Origin: Candidatus Hodarchaeum mangrovi
Lineage (GTDB): Archaea > Asgardarchaeota > Heimdallarchaeia > Hodarchaeales > Hodarchaeaceae
Reading direction: 5' to 3'
Length of the DNA: 37,014 nt
Assembly (NCBI GenBank): GCA_016839515.1
Contig: JAEOUE010000126.1
Coordinates: forward strand, 1-37,014
The stretch's first letter is position 1; each line of letters starts with the position of its first letter. The notes under the pieces were generated by a model. That model was not told where the DNA came from. It ran no database searches and saw only the letters and a program-made list of their open reading frames with translations. A program made the translations under genes and the position numbers. Positions 2,575-27,944 of this stretch are shown piece after piece.

Positions 2575-3525
2575 TTGATGGAAATCGATGAGAAGTTAAA
2601 AATTAATCCTAGTAAAGTAGAGAAGGAAATTCTTGATTTTATTCAAAAAATAATCACACCTCGTGAAATTGAGGGATTTGTGATTTCATATAAATATTGT
2701 TTGGAAACTCTCCTTAGCGTATATATTGCTAGTAAAGTTGTGGGAAAAGAAAATGTAAAATTACTTGTAACCAAAGGACGCTTTATTAATAAACAACCAC
2801 GTGAAACAATGACTATTGAAGCGATAAATACTTTAATTGATCTCCCGGTTGAAAATGTTATAATTGTGAATAAGGAACAAATTTTACGTGAAATAAATCA
2901 AGCTATCTCTGGCTTTCAAGAATTAAAGCCTGGATTTTATTTTTCTGATTCATTGCCTGGATTGAATTATAACCTTGGATATTTTCTATTAAGAAGTATG
3001 GCCCAAGGAAATATGGAAGAAAAAACTTTTGCGTCACCTGAAAAAAGACCTAAAACTGGACGAGAAAAGTTTATTCAAAAAACTATTGCTGCTTATAAAA
3101 GTCAGATCAGATTAGGTGCATTATTAGCTTTTAATTTAGCAGAATCAGAGAATTATTCCGTGATAGGAATAGTAAATAAATCTGAATGGCTATTAGGATT
3201 ATTTACAAAGTTTGGGACGTTTCAAGCAGCTGATATTCTCCCTTTGGCTGATCTATATCGTACTCAAGTTGTTCAACTTGCTGAGTATCTTGGTTTCCTT
3301 AAACACATAAATTCTACTCTAACTCCAGGATCTTCTGATTTTCATGGGATATTCAATGTTTCAATCGAAGAAATTGATCGAATTTTAATCAGATTGGAGG
3401 AAGGTTACGAGTTTTCAAGAATTATTGAGGAAGTTGTGGTTTCAGAGCAGATAGTTAAAAAAATAGCCCATTTTTATAATGTTTCTCAGTATGCACGAAA
3501 AGTTCCATTGATCCCTAAATTCTAA
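2575..3525 (+). CDS. Divergent NadE-like protein lacking the SGGxDS PP-loop (probable pseudo-enzyme)
   Basis: NadE layout retained (EILDFIQK, VGKENV, GIVNKSEWLLGLFTKFG, DILPLADLYRTQVVQLAEYLG), but the PP-loop position reads VISYKYCLET. A GGAG RBS precedes ATG 2578. Confidence 0.75.
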   Translation: MMEIDEKLKINPSKVEKEILDFIQKIITPREIEGFVISYKYCLETLLSVYIASKVVGKENVKLLVTKGRFINKQPRETMTIEAINTLIDLPVENVIIVNKEQILREINQAISGFQELKPGFYFSDSLPGLNYNLGYFLLRSMAQGNMEEKTFASPEKRPKTGREKFIQKTIAAYKSQIRLGALLAFNLAESENYSVIGIVNKSEWLLGLFTKFGTFQAADILPLADLYRTQVVQLAEYLGFLKHINSTLTPGSSDFHGIFNVSIEEIDRILIRLEEGYEFSRIIEEVVVSEQIVKKIAHFYNVSQYARKVPLIPKF

Positions 3526-6438: not shown

Positions 6439-7686
6439 TTATTTAGCCAATTCATCTAAATCATAAATTACTTGGAGTACCAATTCTGCAGCACAAGCAA
6501 TACTAGCTCCATTTAACCTTTCTGGGGTATCTTGGAGGGTATGCCAATCCATAGGAACCCCATTGGTTGAAAGACCAAATAGAGTTGTTGCGTGTATTCC
6601 TTTTCTTGAAAAGTTGGCAGCATCTGAACCTGCGAACGTTAATGGTTTTACCGTTACAGATAGTTCCAATTTTATAGCAGCTTTTTCAATTATCTGGATT
6701 AAGGGTAATGAGTGTTTTGCTAGGAACATCGTTTCTCTAGTTGCAAGTAGAAAGGTTTCTGCACTTAAACATTCAAGATTAAAAAGAAATGCATTACGTT
6801 CTATTAATTCTTCTTTGTGAAGAGAAACAAATCTTTTAGATCCGCGCATATGTTCCTCACCTGCAAAACTAATTAGCCAAACTTCAACATTTTCAGGTAA
6901 ATTATTAACAAGATATTTTCCAACTTCTAAAACCGCAGAAACAGCACTAAGATTGTCATTTGCACCAAGAACTCCACGATTTGATCGTAAAAACATCCCA
7001 AGAATAAGAATTAGTATGATTCCAGGGACAAATGAAAAATATTGTATTAAATCGATTAAAAACAAATTAGTCAACTTATTAAACAGTAAAATTGTTTTGA
7101 GAACTCCAAGTAGAATATTAAGGACGGTTATGAATACTAATCCAAAAATAAGAAATTTAGACTTTTCTCCTAATTTACTCAGGAGAGGAAATTCATATGC
7201 TGAATCATGATGCCCTGATATTAAAATAAGTTTCTTTACTTCCATACTAGGCTTAATCTTTCCTATTATATGATAAGAGGTTTTTTTAGGGTAGAGGAAA
7301 TCAACAACCTCCCAGAGTAACAATTGTTGGACAAAGTAGATACCTAATCCTAAAATAAATAAAAAACTAGAAATTAAAGGGTGAAGGAAGATATAAGTAA
7401 TTATCCCTCCAAAATATAATGCTACAATTATCCAAATAAAGTCTAAGAATCCTTGGGGATGACAAGTAAATTCTTCTTGCTCAACAGAATCACAAATCAG
7501 ACTCATTTCCTTATATATTAAATCTCCAGCATCTTTTTCTTCTTTTGTTCCACCAATGCGAGGACCAATGTTTTCACAAATATTATTGATGAATTTTATC
7601 ATTCTTTTACCAGAGGGGTCTATCCTAGGAATTTTCTTAACATTCAACTCAGTTAACCAACCAACGAAAATTTCCGAACCAATCAA
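6439..7686 (-). CDS. Membrane-embedded M28-family Zn aminopeptidase
   Basis: IGPRIGGT, GHHDSA, GANDNLSAV, FAGEEH, NLECL, GSDA and WHTLQDT, with two inserted TM hairpins. Confidence 0.85.
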   Translation of the reverse strand: MIGSEIFVGWLTELNVKKIPRIDPSGKRMIKFINNICENIGPRIGGTKEEKDAGDLIYKEMSLICDSVEQEEFTCHPQGFLDFIWIIVALYFGGIITYIFLHPLISSFLFILGLGIYFVQQLLLWEVVDFLYPKKTSYHIIGKIKPSMEVKKLILISGHHDSAYEFPLLSKLGEKSKFLIFGLVFITVLNILLGVLKTILLFNKLTNLFLIDLIQYFSFVPGIILILILGMFLRSNRGVLGANDNLSAVSAVLEVGKYLVNNLPENVEVWLISFAGEEHMRGSKRFVSLHKEELIERNAFLFNLECLSAETFLLATRETMFLAKHSLPLIQIIEKAAIKLELSVTVKPLTFAGSDAANFSRKGIHATTLFGLSTNGVPMDWHTLQDTPERLNGASIACAAELVLQVIYDLDELAK

Positions 7687-21294: not shown

Positions 21295-21876
21295 TTATCC
21301 AAAAACTCGCTTCATTAGAAGAGAGAGCCGTTGTTGGATTAGGGGGTCAGAATCCCCTAAACTGCTGATTTTATTCCAAGCGTCCTCTGTTAATCCGTAT
21401 TCCTGTAGACGATCAGGGAGAATCATATTCCACCTTAAAGCTCCTTCTTGATAATTTGGTGCTTTATCTAGGATAATCTGAAATTCAATGCTTAATTGAA
21501 AATAGACTTTAAGTGAAGCAGGATCAAGTGAAACACCTTCAAGAGGGGGAAATAAGGGTTCTAAAGGCAAGTTCTGAGATACTTTCTTCGGTTTGATTCC
21601 TAATTCACTGAGGTAACCAAAGAAATCAGGGATTTGGGGAAAATTAGAGTCAAAAAATTCAGCGTTTTTATCAAAGGGGGCATCCTGAGGATTTATGCCT
21701 TTTGAAAAATCATGCTGTAGATCGACTGGAATAACTGGTTTAACTTCAATATTTTTTTTGGTCAGGGCTTCTTTATTTCCACAATGTGGACATGGATTTC
21801 GCTCATCTAATTTCATGACATAATTATGACACTTTTTACAGACAGGAACTGTAATTTCCTCCGAGAATGAGGACCT
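21295..21876 (-). CDS. Hypothetical protein with an N-terminal zinc ribbon; start uncertain
   Basis: The frame stays open upstream of ATG 21816 to 21876 and adds VCKKCH, the partner knuckle of CPHCG. Confidence 0.65.
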   Translation of the reverse strand, partial: RSSFSEEITVPVCKKCHNYVMKLDERNPCPHCGNKEALTKKNIEVKPVIPVDLQHDFSKGINPQDAPFDKNAEFFDSNFPQIPDFFGYLSELGIKPKKVSQNLPLEPLFPPLEGVSLDPASLKVYFQLSIEFQIILDKAPNYQEGALRWNMILPDRLQEYGLTEDAWNKISSLGDSDPLIQQRLSLLMKRVFG

Positions 21877-22244
21877 TTACTCATTAACGAAATATAGTTT
21901 TTGTGACTTAAAAAGTATCTAGTTAGGTAGTGAAATCAATCTCTCATCAAGTCTATAATAAAATTAGATCTCACAATTTTGGCTATGTCAATAAAACTAT
22001 GATTCTACTATTAAATCCTCAAATCAATATAAAAATGAGTAGAATCAGTTATATTAACTAGGAATGTGCTTAATTGGTACCGTAGTTGCTCCCATTCTTA
22101 GTATGCTATATCAAATTTGTTATAATTCACAGCAGAACTATTAGTTGAGAGTTCAAGTAATCCTTCATATACTGCTGGAAAAGAAGTTGCTTGATTATAA
22201 GATATTTTATGAAAAGATCAGTAGAGGGTGGAATTTTTGGGATT

Positions 22245-22283
22245 TTAGTCATTTCCCATCCATAAAAGGTGGGAAAATTCCCA
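22245..22283. mobile_element. Possible IS200/IS605-type end-hairpin remnant
   Basis: TTTCCCATC-CATAAAA-GGTGGGAAA hairpin resembles CCC-N-TAAA-GGG subterminal hairpins. No transposase nearby. Confidence 0.25.
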
Positions 22284-22319
22284 TGCTGTCCAAAAATATC
22301 GGTACAACCTGATAGAATG

Positions 22320-22739
22320 AAAATTGAGGCAAGTCAAACAAGGATAGCATGGATCTTAAGATGTTGCATAAAAAACAATTCGAAATTTAATTGATAAATG
22401 TTAATAAATGTTATGATTGATTCATTAACGTTTAAGGAATTTCTAGTCGTCGTTGATAATACTCGATGGTTAGCAGAAGGAACAAAACAGAATTCATAGA
22501 TTATAAACACAACTGTGAATGGAATAGTAAAAAAGTTTAATAATTCAGTAGATACGATCCAAGAAACATTCAAGAATTTTGTTACTGAGTCAGAAGAATT
22601 TTTTGCCTCTTCTGAGGAAGTTATAGCTAGTATCGTGGAACAAAATACTAGTATGGCGAAATTAACTTCCTCATCTCAGGACTTAATTTACCTTGGGAGT
22701 AGATCATCCAAACAAATCTTGAAATCTTGGATCTTTTAG
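22320..22739 (+). pseudogene. Decayed methyl-accepting chemotaxis protein signalling domain
   Basis: EFLVVVDNTRWLAEGTKQNS* (TAG 22497-99) resembles GFAVVAD.VR.LAE.T. SEEFFASSEEVIASIVEQNTSMAKLTSSSQDL resembles the methylation helix. A frameshifted IEASQT/G*HG lies upstream. Confidence 0.65.
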
Positions 22740-23419
22740 CGATGTGATTGTAGAAATTTATTAGTAAGTCGAATAAAACAGTTCTCCAGTCCTTGGGAAG
22801 AAGAAGGATCTTCAAAATCAATCTCACAATAATCCATATTATGTAGATATGCATAATGATATCCTTCCTTTGACGAAACACTGCTCTTTTCCAAAACTTT
22901 TGTCTCTGGCTTATGGTTTTTTTTCTTTTTTAATCTGAAATTTGATCTTTTTCGTAAAATAAAATGAAGAATAGGACTCAATTTCCCCTTCTGTGGGCGA
23001 ACTGTGTTTTTATCAGATAATTTGGTTACTTTCTGGGTTTTTTGAGGATAATTTTTTATTCCCAACAGCAGGATAGGAATATCTTTGGAGGGTACATGTT
23101 TCCGAAATTCCATTATCCAATTCGGAATTGCTGCAATGCTTTGTTTATCTTCTATTAAAAAAAAGATCATGCAAGCAGAAGCTCCTCGATAGTAACTTGG
23201 ACGTAACTTTCCGAAAAATTCCTGGCCAGCAGTATCTACAAGAATCAATTTAATATTATTATTTTCAATTGTAATTTTCTTTGTAGTTATATCTACTCCT
23301 AAAGTTGGAAGATAATTCTTGTCAAATTTATTCTCAGCATATCTTCTAATTAAAGAAGTCTTTGGTGAAGAGGGTGATCCAATAGCACAAATTTTGAAAA
23401 GATATTCATTTGAAACCAA
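22736..23419 (-). CDS. Rab-like small GTPase with degenerate G1/G4/G5 motifs and a polybasic insert
   Basis: YLFKIC, YLPTLGVD (G2), VDTAGQE (G3) and SYYRGA are intact. G1 reads GSPSSPKTS and G4 reads GIKNY. GGGGTGA RBS upstream. Confidence 0.9.
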   Translation of the reverse strand: MVSNEYLFKICAIGSPSSPKTSLIRRYAENKFDKNYLPTLGVDITTKKITIENNNIKLILVDTAGQEFFGKLRPSYYRGASACMIFFLIEDKQSIAAIPNWIMEFRKHVPSKDIPILLLGIKNYPQKTQKVTKLSDKNTVRPQKGKLSPILHFILRKRSNFRLKKKKNHKPETKVLEKSSVSSKEGYHYAYLHNMDYCEIDFEDPSSSQGLENCFIRLTNKFLQSHR

Positions 23420-23527
23420 TGTGTCACCCTCATGCTCACATTAAGTCCCGGATTTCATAAAACTATCCAGAGAAATTCTCCGACAATAAGTTGAAAAAAG
23501 AAATTGGTTATCGAAGAAGGAATTAGG

Positions 23528-23537
23528 AAAAAAAAAA
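23528..23537 (-). terminator. Oligo-T terminator of the H/ACA-like RNA
   Basis: 10 consecutive T on the minus strand immediately after the ACA box. Confidence 0.55.
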
Positions 23538-23615
23538 TGTGTGGTTGCATGGAATGGGTCAATCACAACAACATAATATGTTATATTCATGACCCCACTA
23601 TAACTTGCAACCAAT
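23535..23615 (-). ncRNA. Box H/ACA-like pseudouridylation guide sRNA (predicted target LSU rRNA helix 69)
   Basis: Basal stem UGGUUGCA/UGCAACCA; pocket AGUUAUAGU / UUCC; upper stem GGGUCA/UGACCC; K-turn (UGA...GUGAU); ACA box followed by a U-run; TTTTAAG box about 20 nt upstream. Confidence 0.8.
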
Positions 23616-23720
23616 TATGTTCTTTTAATTTAGTCTTAAAAGTTCTACTAAAAATACTTGATAAAGAATAAAAAAAACTGTGTTTATCAAACTTAATACA
23701 TTGGTTCTGGTAAGAAAATA

Positions 23721-26087
23721 ATGGTGATCAATAGCATGGCTGTAAAACCTGCTCTCTGTGGATTAATAATTCTTCTTTTAATTATTTCATTAAATTCTAG
23801 TAATTCTACCCTTAAGAATAATTATATAGTGGAGGATTCAATTTCTAAGATAATTCAACCAACTTATAATTTCGATAATAATATAGAATGGGATTTAATT
23901 TATCATAACACTCGTGAAGGATATTATCGAAGTCCAGGTTGGGCTACAACAGATGGGTGGAATAAAAGTGGGGCGGTGAGGGTAGGGCAAAATGTCATAT
24001 TAAGGATTCGTTCAGCAATAAATGATCTTACACGAGTCCAGATCCGCTATTGAGATGGTGAAGCTGGAGTCGAAGGATTTCGTGAGATGACAAAAATTGC
24101 TTCAACATTAGAATATGATTTTTGGGAAGGTACGATTTTATCTCCTCTACAACCGAGTGATTACTTTTATTCCTTTTTTCTAACTGATGGCACCGAAACT
24201 GACTATTATTCCGATGATGAGGGATTAGATGGTGGAGTAGGCAAAATGTATGCTTCCTATAATTCTGGACGAGATTTTGGTATAGTATTCTACGATCCAG
24301 GATTCACTACTCCAGACTGGCATAAACAAACAGTGGGGTACCAAATTTTTCTCGATCGATTTTTCAATGGAGATTTAAGTAATGATGCTATAGGAGATGG
24401 CTCAAGTGGAGATATCACATGGTTTGAGTGGGATAGCAATGGAGATGGATCCTTTACTTCAGAGGATGCACAACGAGTGTTTGCTATTAAACGAGATTGG
24501 ACAGAATTACCAACTGGAGGTAACGATTTTTTTGGTGGAGATCTTAAGGGTGTGTTTAATAAAATTGATTACCTTAAGGACCTTGGTATTGGTTTTATAT
24601 GGTTAAATCCTTTTACGGAATCACCTGACAATCATGGTTATTCTGTAGATAATTATAAATCAGTAGATCCCTAGTATGGGTCGATTGCTGCTCGTGAGAA
24701 TGGAATTGTAAGAAATAATATCACAGCCTCTTTGGAAATTTTTGATGAACTGGAGTCAACTCTCGAATTCAATGGGATAAAAATCATCTATGATGTTGTG
24801 ATTAATCATGTATCTGCTCAATCAATATACTTTCAGCGATTTGAAAACATGGACGTGGGAGATCTTCTTCTTCCAACTGCTTTTCAAGTTCCTGATCCTT
24901 ACCCATACGTAAAAGGAGCATATGAAGGTGTAACTTCTCTCTTTAACAATTGGTTCCGCTTTTATACCCGTAATCATGACTATGATGCTTGGTGGGGTTT
25001 CTACAATATTCCTACTTTGAAATATGATCAGACAATGAATATTGCTACTGAATTAATTACTGGAGCTAATTCTTTGTTCACATTTTGGGCTAATCATGGT
25101 GTTGATGGATTTAGGCTTGATGTTAATCCCGATTATGACGATGGTACAGGTTCCAGAGTCGTCAATAAACTGATTCGAGATCGTGTCAAGGTAGATAAAT
25201 CTGATAATATTATTATTGGTGAAGTTTGGGATAGAGCAAACACTTGGCTTACTGGAACCATGAATGATGGAGTGCAAAATATGCTGTTCAGAGATAATAC
25301 AATAATTTGGATCCGAGGAACTAATGTAGGGTATACAGATAACACTTATATCAATAAACTAGTATCATTCCAAGATTTTTATCCCCCAGAAGCTTATCAC
25401 TCTCTCTGGACAAATCTAGGAAATCATGATACTGCTCGAATACTTACAGAATTAGAAGAAATAAACGATCGTGTTTTGTTAGCTGCAGCATTACAATTCT
25501 TTGTTCCAGGAGTTCCAGTTATTTACTATGGCGATGAAATTGGATTACCTGGTGTAAGGGATCCTGATAGCAGACGACCTTTTCCATGGGGATCAGAAAA
25601 TCAAACAATGCTAAAGAATTACAAGGATCTAATTCAAATAAGGAAGAACTATAAGGTTTTTCAACGAGGTTCATTTTTTTCTATAGAAGATCAAGTTGAA
25701 GGAGTTTTATCGTTTGGACGTGAATTATCCTCTACGTCCCAAAGTGCAACAGTGGGTATTTTTAATAGGAATAAAAATCGTTTAGCTTATTTACTAAATT
25801 TATCAACCTTTCATGAGATCCAAGTAGGTGATGTATTAGTAGATCTCCTTAATAATAACACCACATATATAGTAGATGAGAATAAATCTATTAATCTCTT
25901 ACTTGAACCATATGGAAGAATGATTTTATTAAATGGAATCAGTGATCCTCTGACTCAAAGTACCTCTAAAACTATAAGTCAAAAATCCTCTAATTTTTCG
26001 CTAATACCATTACAAGTAGCACTTTTAACATTGATATTGAGCAAGAAACTCTATACTAGGAGAACCAAGAGAAAAAGGAAAAATTAA
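23721..26087 (+). pseudogene. Secreted, C-terminally anchored GH13 amylopullulanase/neopullulanase-like gene with two in-frame stops
   Basis: Three ORF-track pieces lie in one frame, separated only by TGA 24051-53 and TAG 24672-74. Motifs YQIFLDRF, GGDLKG, NHGY, DVVINH, GFRLDV, IGEVW, LGNHD and IYYGDE present. Signal peptide, and a Ser/Thr linker-TM-basic tail. Confidence 0.85.
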
Positions 26088-26093
26088 TTTTTT

Positions 26094-26603
26094 TCATTTT
26101 AAAATATTACCAACTGTCCTATATTCCCTTGGCCAGTAGAGAATTGCCTGCTGTCGAGAATAATCTTTTCGGACATAACTAGTAACAATTTCTCCGATAA
26201 ACCAGATATGAGTTCCTCCTTGGTTAATTTCATTAATTACTTTACATTCAAGACTAACTGGGCATTCTTCAATGAAAACAGAGGTTATTTTTTTTCCAGG
26301 AACCGGTGTTAATCCTGTTTCAGCAAATTTATCACAATCTCGTCCTGAGTGAGATCCACAGTACTTTATTGCAGGAAGAAGTTCAGTAGTAGGAAGATTG
26401 AGGGAAAAATCTTGAGTTTTTTTGATTAATTCAAAGGAATATCTTGAAGGTACTATACCAATCATTACCATAGGCTTAACAAAGGAAAAGAAACTTACTG
26501 CTGCAATAGTTATGATATTTTTGTCCACACAAACTAATACAACAGGAAATCCAGGAAAGGTCATTAATCCTGCCTCAGGTGATACTTCTTCTTTTTGTAA
26601 CAT
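26094..26603 (-). CDS. Flavin reductase (DIM6/NTAB-like) family protein
   Basis: FPVVLV, CGSHSGRDCDKF, IEECPVSLEC, GGTHIWFIGEI. Confidence 0.92.
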   Translation of the reverse strand: MLQKEEVSPEAGLMTFPGFPVVLVCVDKNIITIAAVSFFSFVKPMVMIGIVPSRYSFELIKKTQDFSLNLPTTELLPAIKYCGSHSGRDCDKFAETGLTPVPGKKITSVFIEECPVSLECKVINEINQGGTHIWFIGEIVTSYVRKDYSRQQAILYWPREYRTVGNILK

Positions 26604-26795
26604 AATTATCTACCAAAAGGGTTATTTTCAGGAAGTAAAAACTTATAATTATCCATTTTAAATTTTTAAAGATCTGTTTGGATAAGTATATCTCAAACTT
26701 TAACTGATTTAAGTTAAAAATAAATTGAGTCAATTGAATAACATAAATCCATTTAGATAGTATATACGAATAGAATAGCTATAGAGTCTGAGAAA

Positions 26796-27944
26796 ATGGT
26801 CTATCTGGCAAATGAAGTATTTATTAGCCTTATCATAATTTTTATTGAAATAATATTTGAGATATTTTTTATTTATCGTATTTCTAAAGCTTTAGTTAGA
26901 CAAAGATATCCTAAAACGTTAATATTCCTCTTATTGATCTTTACATTTCTCCTTTTTAGAGACTTTGCAATATTTTTTAGTATTTTTGCTCCTCAGAATG
27001 ATAGGGGTCTTTTTATTGGATTTAGTAAAGTTTACCTTCTTTCTACACTCTTTATCACATACATTTTCTTTCTGTTTTCTGAGAAGTTTGAGTATGATTC
27101 AATATTAACACGTGACCAATTTTTAGTCACGATAGTAGCCACAGTCATTAGTACTCTAATCGTTATCAGTAATTTAATACCAATTTGGTCAGATCAGCTA
27201 AATATGTACCGAATAGCGACAGATTACACCCTTGAAATGTTGATGTTAACCTTGAATGGTATTATGGGCATGGTCGTAACCATAAGCTTCTGGAATGGGT
27301 ATAAGGATGTATGGATTACTCAAGAGAGACAACTAAAATTATTAATAATAGGGAATCTGATTATTTTCTTTATTCCTTGGATTTTCACCATTATTTTGCT
27401 TTTCTATTCGATTCCTCCGAATATTTTTATTAGAACACTAATTCGAGCTTTTAACCTAATTGGTTTATTATTCTATTATTTTTCATTCCATGGATTCAAT
27501 TATCCAAGTTTATTCAAAAGACAACGTGCAGATAAAATAATGGTTACTGATTTAAATGGAATTCCATTATTTACCTATGATTTTAAAGAAGATATCCATA
27601 AAATTGATGCAATTCTTTTTGCTGGAGCAATTGTGGCTATTACTCAATTAATGCTTGAATCTATCAAATCACCATCTCCCATTATTGAAGTGGCTATGAA
27701 AAATCAATATAAAATCATGCTCGAATATAATTCCAACTTTTTAACCCTTATTTTAACCCCCAAGGGGGATTCATACCTTCGTAGTTCGTTAGATAATTTT
27801 TCTTATTCATTTGACAAAAATTTTAGTTCTATTATCGCTTCAGGTGAAGTTCATGATATTAACCTTTTTGAAAAAGGTGCACGAAGTATTTTGACTACCC
27901 GTTTTGGAATCCCGTGGCAGTTTCTTCCAGAATCTGAGAGCTAA
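26796..27944 (+). CDS. Seven-TM membrane protein fused to a C-terminal longin-like domain
   Basis: Seven hydrophobic segments in the first ~235 aa, then IMVTDLNGIPLFTYDF...IDAILFAGAIVAITQLMLE. Confidence 0.7.
   Translation: MVYLANEVFISLIIIFIEIIFEIFFIYRISKALVRQRYPKTLIFLLLIFTFLLFRDFAIFFSIFAPQNDRGLFIGFSKVYLLSTLFITYIFFLFSEKFEYDSILTRDQFLVTIVATVISTLIVISNLIPIWSDQLNMYRIATDYTLEMLMLTLNGIMGMVVTISFWNGYKDVWITQERQLKLLIIGNLIIFFIPWIFTIILLFYSIPPNIFIRTLIRAFNLIGLLFYYFSFHGFNYPSLFKRQRADKIMVTDLNGIPLFTYDFKEDIHKIDAILFAGAIVAITQLMLESIKSPSPIIEVAMKNQYKIMLEYNSNFLTLILTPKGDSYLRSSLDNFSYSFDKNFSSIIASGEVHDINLFEKGARSILTTRFGIPWQFLPESES

Follow-up and report, generated by a model that had tools for sequence, protein, structure and literature searches.

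We found that a gene of the GH13 (alpha-amylase) family in Candidatus Hodarchaeum mangrovi, interrupted by one in-frame TGA and one in-frame TAG, is most probably a pseudogene of very recent origin, seen while the loss of function is still polymorphic, and not a case of recoding; we put the probability of this reading at about 80%. The gene lies in a stretch of 37,014 nucleotides (contig JAEOUE010000126.1 of assembly GCA_016839515.1, hereafter the window), which is contig C40 of a metagenome-assembled genome (MAG), G000, of 4.0 Mb in 348 contigs (91% complete, 6% contaminated, 32.9% G+C). Each stop arose by a point mutation of a sense codon, TGG>TGA at Trp111 and TAT>TAG at Tyr318, and natural populations carry both as real, segregating alleles beside an intact one.

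Architecture of the interrupted gene

Translation gave the following features.

23721..26087, plus strand: whole GH13 gene (alpha-amylase family, neopullulanase-like); single frame, 788 codons plus TAA, two internal stops
24051..24053, plus strand: in-frame TGA, codon 111, in IRY*DGEAG; ancestral codon TGG (Trp)
24672..24674, plus strand: in-frame TAG, codon 318, in VDP*YGS, within the conserved '...VDPxYG' of the catalytic domain; ancestral codon TAT (Tyr)
23721..24053, plus strand: fragment 1 (110 aa), up to the TGA; carries the hydrophobic leader and the beginning of the N-terminal domain
24087..24674, plus strand: fragment 2, 195 aa, from the first ATG past the TGA; remainder of the N-domain and about 60 catalytic-domain profile positions, up to the TAG
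24732..26087, plus strand: fragment 3, 451 aa, from a TTG; remaining catalytic domain with the catalytic residues, C-domain and C-terminal anchor
25119..25121, plus strand: codon of D467, in GFRLDV; invariant column, presumed catalytic nucleophile
25221..25223, plus strand: codon of E501, in GEVW; invariant column, presumed acid/base
25428..25430, plus strand: codon of D570, in GNHD; invariant column, presumed transition-state stabiliser

The gene has no frameshift, and its three open pieces (110, 195 and 451 aa) all lie in one frame. Fragment 1 matched no Pfam family at E<=0.01, and fragment 3 is 100% identical to the gene-caller protein P0125 (451 aa). PF00128 matches with its profile positions 1-61 before the TAG (E 3.2e-16, 60.1 bits) and 67-412 after it (E 2.9e-27, 96.5 bits; cut-off 22 bits), showing that one domain is split by the TAG. 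The reading frame is therefore interrupted inside the catalytic domain, and no uninterrupted frame for the (beta/alpha)8 barrel is left.

In the read-through protein, D358, N362, H363, R465, D467, E501, H569 and D570 are each in a column that does not vary among the 24 aligned sequences, and we take D467, E501 and D570 to be the Asp/Glu/Asp (nucleophile, acid/base and transition-state stabiliser) of the GH13 literature. Inspection by eye showed a hydrophobic N-terminal leader and, at the C-terminus, a hydrophobic stretch followed by a Lys/Arg tail. The gene is thus predicted to encode a membrane-anchored, secreted-type glycosidase of the neopullulanase / cyclomaltodextrinase kind. An earlier reading of the window from its letters alone (hereafter the sequence-only reading) had described 788 codons with an in-frame TGA and TAG and no frameshift, and had called the catalytic Asp/Glu/Asp, the signal peptide and the anchor intact; our translation, alignment and inspection agree with it on each of these points, the roles of the catalytic residues being presumed.

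Both stops replace conserved sense codons

Among 23 orthologues (43-99% identical; 737-813 aa), the column of the TGA holds Trp in 21, Tyr in one and Leu in one, and the column of the TAG holds Tyr in all 23. A sister gene on a metagenome contig (L063:2989-5358), 86% identical to the window gene, is an intact open reading frame (ORF) of 789 codons that carries TGG and TAT at the positions of the two stop codons. The scan of metagenome contigs yielded two loci, this intact sister and one relative at 55%; the contigs of the broken sister and of protein P0123, both described below, were not among the loci returned. The Trp found in most orthologues matches the guess of the sequence-only reading that the TGA stands for Trp (TGG to TGA) and not for Cys or selenocysteine (Sec).

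Between the window gene and the sister gene, the ratio of nonsynonymous to synonymous divergence (dN/dS) is 0.18 overall (dS 0.40), 0.185 between the stops and 0.14 after the TAG, with no rise downstream. This low ratio, not raised past the stops, points to purifying selection on the gene until very recently.

Intact and interrupted alleles coexist

At least half of the sampled 31-mers of the gene are held by 20 of the 23 listed public runs (7 studies). None of the listed runs holds all of them; the best share is 0.92. Alleles were read from four runs, each from a different study:

X1 and X3: G at 24053 and T at 24674; TGG / TAT
X4 (depth 14.4): A at 24053 and T at 24674; TGA / TAT
X11: A at 24053 and G at 24674; TGA / TAG, like the window

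Three allele classes (W/Y, stop/Y and stop/stop) are therefore present among the four runs, in which the combination TGG/TAG (W/stop) was not seen. None of the four showed an indel in the gene, and 13 further variable sites (6 synonymous, 7 missense) are shared among the haplotypes in a mosaic way. In X4 the whole gene is on one record of 3063 bases. In X11 the two stops are on separate contigs with depths of 4.0 and 6.5, and alternative short contigs at 24291-24351 and 25133-25209 indicate more than one strain. Neither the gap in the X11 contigs at 25933-26087 nor the near-zero word shares of some runs is informative.

The 90% protein cluster of the gene includes an intact protein, P0002 (783 aa, with W and Y), which is the closest intact relative at 99% identity. 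It also includes the 451-aa tail from the window (P0125) and an identical 451-aa protein, P0123, from a 3.7-kb contig of another assembly. The same cluster holds the intact 86% sister (P0122) and a broken version of the sister gene, present as P0124 (542 aa) and P0126 (204 aa) on one contig of 34561 bases. The break follows '...YINKL', where the intact sister has the codon TTA, one step from TAA or TGA, and is a third, independent disruption of the GH13 gene.

At E<=1e-50, no orthologue was found in any of the 21 other species of the genus (G001-G021; incomplete genomes). Another family of the class does have the orthologue, at 50-55% identity and free of the stops, in all three of its genomes examined. 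So scattered an occurrence suggests that the gene was repeatedly lost or transferred, and it is probably accessory and dispensable in this lineage, so that its loss would be tolerated.

Recoding machinery and use of the stop codons

The sequence-only reading had pointed to pylTS, Sec genes and suppressor tRNAs as informative, and in the 91% complete genome we found no PylS, SepSecS, SelD, tRNA-Sec or credible suppressor. No tRNA-Sec (RF01852) scored over the cut-off, the 12 sub-threshold matches being ordinary tRNAs. The best match of SepSecS reached 17 bits against a cut-off of 225 (PSTK was not searched), that of SelD 52 bits against 125 (SelB was not searched), and PylS had 0 matches (pylBCD were not searched). 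None of the 29 tRNAs found with Infernal has a stop anticodon when introns are placed canonically; ARAGORN at default settings returned no suppressor tRNA, and the genome has no credible CUA tRNA. A tRNA-Trp was not detected at default settings either, in a genome about 9% of markers short. Over 23400-26800 there was no match to a Sec insertion sequence (SECIS)-like or other Rfam family, the archaeal SECIS possibly not being modelled in Rfam, and the predicted RNA folds after the two stops are not unusual (z -0.43 and +1.62), as is also the case after the terminal TAA.

Several candidates were rejected. The 'tRNA-Stop(tta)' called by ARAGORN at C10:14925-15026 is a Lys-UUU tRNA with an intron at the canonical position 37/38. 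At relaxed thresholds, five of 70 ARAGORN matches were intron-less and suppressor-like; ORFs of 193-645 codons contain four of these, and the fifth, an AT-rich stretch, has no Rfam tRNA match. The 388 relaxed calls that allow introns (up to 2 kb) were judged noise. A suppressor candidate at 21828-21917 of the window has no Rfam tRNA match, and a match to LPR17 over 23400-26800 reached 21 bits against a cut-off of 98. As a side observation, about a third of the 29 tRNA genes have introns (e.g., C10:14479-14608, C63:13901-14141 and C149:3386-3489), in one case not in the anticodon loop, and some of these introns are misplaced and anticodons miscalled by ARAGORN.

Genome-wide, TGA ends 623 (22%) and TAG 542 (19%) of 2889 ORFs of at least 150 codons. 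The sequence-only reading had noted that, within the window, TGA ends trpS and tldD and TAG ends the DUF72 gene. This holds for a Trp/Tyr-class synthetase gene, one TldD/PmbA gene and the DUF72 gene; a second TldD/PmbA gene in the window ends in TAA. A reassigned TGA, as Trp (table 4) or Gly (table 25), is not what we observed, TGA being a common terminator and the residues at in-frame TGA codons being inconsistent (see below). The homologous residue expected of a selenoprotein is also missing, with Trp in 21, Tyr in one and Leu in one of the 23 orthologues and no Cys or Sec.

The archaeal release factor aRF1 of the genome (G000:C10:31413-32636; L206:1096-2322) has NIRS in place of the usual NIKS motif; YxCxxxF (YVCDNRF) and GGQ are canonical. 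NIRS is also found in aRF1 of all 21 congeners and of both same-order genomes examined (loci L209-L230); the motif in other families of the class is NIKS or NIKD. Since NIRS and YVCDNRF are the same in all 21 congeners, there is no sign of a strain-specific termination defect.

Other genes with in-frame stops

We searched the genome for pairs of stop-free stretches of at least 100 codons parted by one stop in the same frame. Of the 191 such places (105 TAA, 57 TGA and 29 TAG), two are the GH13 stops and two more are elsewhere on C40, namely a plus-strand pair (6466-7207) that overlaps a Peptidase_M28 gene on the minus strand (6439-7686), and adjacent peptide-deformylase and nucleotidyltransferase genes. 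The remaining 187 were read through with X and compared with Pfam, 50 whole and 137 as windows of ±150 codons. One domain spans the stop in four of the 187 (the first four lines below). For 34 of the 187 no Pfam family was found and they cannot be judged, so the census is a lower bound.

C58:44600-46285, plus strand: Peptidase_M14 (L025); in-frame TAG
C68:334-1827, plus strand: Succ_CoA_lig, ADP-forming acyl-CoA synthetase-like (L026); in-frame TGA
C109:10078-11823, minus strand: FAD_binding_2, SdhA/FrdA-like (L032); in-frame TGA
C232:2063-3346, minus strand: Beta_helix / NosD, secreted-type with a C-terminal anchor (L052); in-frame TGA
C29:13554-15155, plus strand: SBBP-repeat protein with a leader (L017); in-frame TGA; probable, from the repeat pattern and the leader
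C174:27671-30133: possible case that lacks Pfam support; in-frame TAA
C241:470-1372: possible case that lacks Pfam support; in-frame TAG in an FtsX-like permease linker

The genome-wide count of in-frame stops, which the sequence-only reading had proposed as a check, thus adds at least four other genes with in-frame stops, mostly TGA. The TGA of the SdhA/FrdA-like gene stands where HY.MGGI has its conserved Gly, and an intact protein (P0127; 575 aa, 99% identical) that has this Gly is encoded on another contig in the database. In-frame TGA therefore stands at a Trp position in the GH13 gene and at a Gly position in the SdhA/FrdA-like gene. From these comparisons the genome appears to carry several nonsense alleles whose sense versions circulate. 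A second SdhA/SdhB-like pair is present on C141 (L136), and the C109 SdhA/FrdA-like copy may be redundant.

Origin of the double-stop allele and alternative explanations

If the gene is a young pseudogene, TGG>TGA would have come first and inactivated it, translation stopping at codon 110 and leaving a leader peptide with a third of the N-domain. TAT>TAG would have arisen later on this already dead background; the TAG was seen only on the TGA background, as is expected once selection has ended. Downstream pieces, if made by reinitiation, would have neither the leader nor the first barrel strands and would be inactive. The TGA/TAG allele has thus presumably lost its function.

Several observations weigh against this explanation. 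The gene is otherwise pristine, with no indel in four runs, and a dead gene might show more decay. The TGA allele is on at least three haplotype backgrounds (window, X11 and X4), and a dead allele might not spread in this way. The 7 missense and 6 synonymous polymorphic sites give a pN/pS of about 0.33 (13 sites), which is no more than a moderate relaxation. Both stops are on one molecule only in the assembly of the window itself, and all of the runs were read as Logan contigs, which show presence, drop rare variants and give no allele frequencies. Each stop is a single third-position change, and near-cognate readthrough by tRNA-Trp or tRNA-Tyr would restore the wild-type residue. Finally, the tally of in-frame stops with the GH13 gene included is 5 TGA, 2 TAG and 0 TAA, whereas from codon usage one would expect about 29%, 22% and 48%; a post hoc binomial test gives P of about 0.03 for 5 or more TGA among 7, a small number in which the two GH13 stops are not independent. 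We regard this skew as a weak hint, either of leakier TGA termination or of chance.

Leaky termination would make the gene a 'pseudo-pseudogene', in which a near-cognate tRNA-Trp reads UGA and tRNA-Tyr reads UAG, each at low frequency, and a little wild-type enzyme is rebuilt. We consider this unlikely, and the same holds for its corollary that the nonsense alleles are a strong, reversible down-switch and only mildly deleterious, not a knockout. The proposal draws on the third-base differences from the ancestral codons, on the lack of further decay or indels, on the TGA allele being found in two studies on different backgrounds, and on the tally of 5 TGA, 2 TAG and 0 TAA. It also has bacterial precedent. 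TGA in bacteria is described as leaky and read as Trp, with in-frame stops widespread and under purifying selection (PMC7918605), and Salmonella proteogenomics as detecting low-level translation of pseudogenes that have in-frame stops (PMC9122581). The bacterial nonsense polymorphisms resemble the GH13 gene in being single-base stops in otherwise intact genes with intact alleles nearby, and in the possible low-level near-cognate readthrough of 'pseudo-pseudogenes' (PMC9122581, PMC7918605). However, those precedents are bacterial and not archaeal: the bacteria have RF1 and RF2, whereas here an archaeon with a single aRF1 has two stops in one gene. Two serial stops would also multiply the loss, a few percent at each leaving well under 1% of product, and the second stop, being on the TGA background only, suggests that selection had ended. 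None of the 21 congeners yielded the gene, its copy in the sister lineage has been broken independently, neither stop is followed by a stimulatory RNA structure, the aRF1 motifs (NIRS, YVCDNRF) shared by the 21 congeners argue against a strain-specific termination defect, and the TGA skew amounts to seven events counted post hoc.

An error of sequencing or assembly, by which the true genome would have TGG and TAT and the stops would be low-coverage artefacts or a chimeric strain consensus, is very improbable. It is true that the MAG consists of 348 contigs with 6% contamination, that X11 has low depths (4.0 and 6.5) and mixes strains, and that no run holds 100% of the 31-mers of the window (best 0.92). 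The A at 24053 is nevertheless also present in X4, from another study, at a depth of 14.4 and with the whole gene in one record, the G at 24674 recurs in an independently built X11 contig, and the 451-aa P0123 comes from another assembly; substitution errors that make two stops in one gene across independent assemblies are very unlikely. This excludes an error at the TGA and makes one at the TAG unlikely. The sequence-only reading had named base-call errors beside a very recent pseudogene as likelier than readthrough. For the TGA, the same A at 24053 in X4 and in X11 overturns the base-call claim. For the TAG, the same G at 24674 in X11 and the identical fragment P0123 speak against it, these sources possibly not being independent of the sample of the window itself. 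The very recent pseudogene gains support from the ancestral TGG and TAT, from the recoding machinery not being found, and from TGA and TAG being common terminators.

Programmed recoding or an altered code, in which TGA would stand for Sec, Trp or Gly and/or TAG for pyrrolysine (Pyl), is more improbable still. Recoding to Sec and to Pyl is reported in Asgard MAGs (PMC9723677), and as in the cases described there, an in-frame TGA or TAG is present in genes of a MAG. Several other genes of this genome have an in-frame TGA, and the genome is 91% complete with 29 tRNAs found, none for Trp. In contrast to those cases, the machinery that we searched for (tRNA-Sec, SepSecS, SelD and PylS) was not found over the cut-offs, and the stops go back to codons for Trp and Tyr, not for Cys or Lys. 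There is also no SECIS-like Rfam match, the five suppressor calls appear at relaxed ARAGORN thresholds only and lie in long ORFs or an AT-rich stretch, 22% and 19% of long ORFs terminate in TGA and TAG, and the residue expected at an in-frame TGA is Trp in one gene and Gly in another. Close strains and the sister lineage carry the sense codons TGG and TAT, an outcome that the sequence-only reading had named as speaking against recoding. Failing every defining feature tested, Sec/Pyl recoding or a code change is strongly disfavoured.

Relatives, structures and gene neighbourhood

All listed relatives of the GH13 protein carry PF00128 and many also carry PF02903 in precomputed annotations; the named ones come from MAGs of Hodarchaeales, Promethearchaeota (Lokiarchaeota) and Heimdallarchaeota. 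The nearest solved structures are chains of neopullulanase 2 / alpha-amylase II (TVAII; 1jf5, best at E 3.4e-56, and 1bvz at 3.6e-56), followed by neopullulanase 1 / alpha-amylase I (TVAI; 1ji1) at E about 1e-50, which we take to come from Thermoactinomyces vulgaris. Common to these enzymes and the window protein is a GH13 catalytic domain, in the window protein behind a putative N-terminal Ig-like domain, and the alignment, covering part of the window protein only, passes through the conserved regions that bear the catalytic residues. In the fragments of the window itself PF02903 gave nothing at E<=0.01, though TVAII and TVAI align over the N-region. The archaeal protein differs from both in having a leader at its N-terminus, a putative membrane anchor at its C-terminus and, past the first strand of the barrel, a long insertion. 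Where the two stops lie, the residues of TVAII are Ala and Gln and not Trp and Tyr. Unlike TVAII and TVAI, the GH13 copy of the window is broken, and its neopullulanase-like label is based on sequence.

The GH13 gene is flanked by a Ras-family GTPase gene and a flavin-reductase gene, and no other carbohydrate gene is next to it. Upstream of the Ras-like GTPase gene, a stretch of about 900 bases (window 21817-22735) is free of tRNAs and of ORFs of at least 80 aa, and no Rfam match in it goes below E 1.3. At the start of the window, two plus-strand ORFs (1-753, truncated by the window start, and 2575-3525) flank a citrate-transporter-like gene, and in both the match is confined to the C-terminal end of the NAD_synthase profile (~145 positions, 97-242 of 242).

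Implications

In-frame TGA and TAG codons in Asgard MAGs are sometimes read as Sec or Pyl recoding, and the GH13 gene is a caution in this respect, plain nonsense polymorphism being the explanation here, as the comparison of alleles between public runs shows. The 451-aa tail has already been deposited as a 'protein' by gene callers.

It is quite unlikely, though worth stating, that in this Hodarchaeales-like lineage nonsense alleles of TGA, and less so of TAG, are mildly deleterious because near-cognate tRNAs restore the ancestral residue. If this were true, the GH13, SdhA/FrdA-like, ADP-forming acyl-CoA synthetase-like and several secreted-protein genes would be 'pseudo-pseudogenes' with low expression. 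Such genes would be revertible by one base change and would form a dimmer switch at the level of the population, whose footprints would be the skew of in-frame stops toward TGA and the way in which the TGA allele has spread across several haplotypes. Leaky stops, if real, would also bear on the fidelity of archaeal aRF1 at UGA in nature.

As a young pseudogene, the GH13 gene offers a case study of gene loss at its very start in an uncultivated archaeon, with intact, single-hit and double-hit alleles coexisting. The extracellular GH13 enzyme would then be an accessory trait that varies between strains, one that has been hit independently in the sister lineage.

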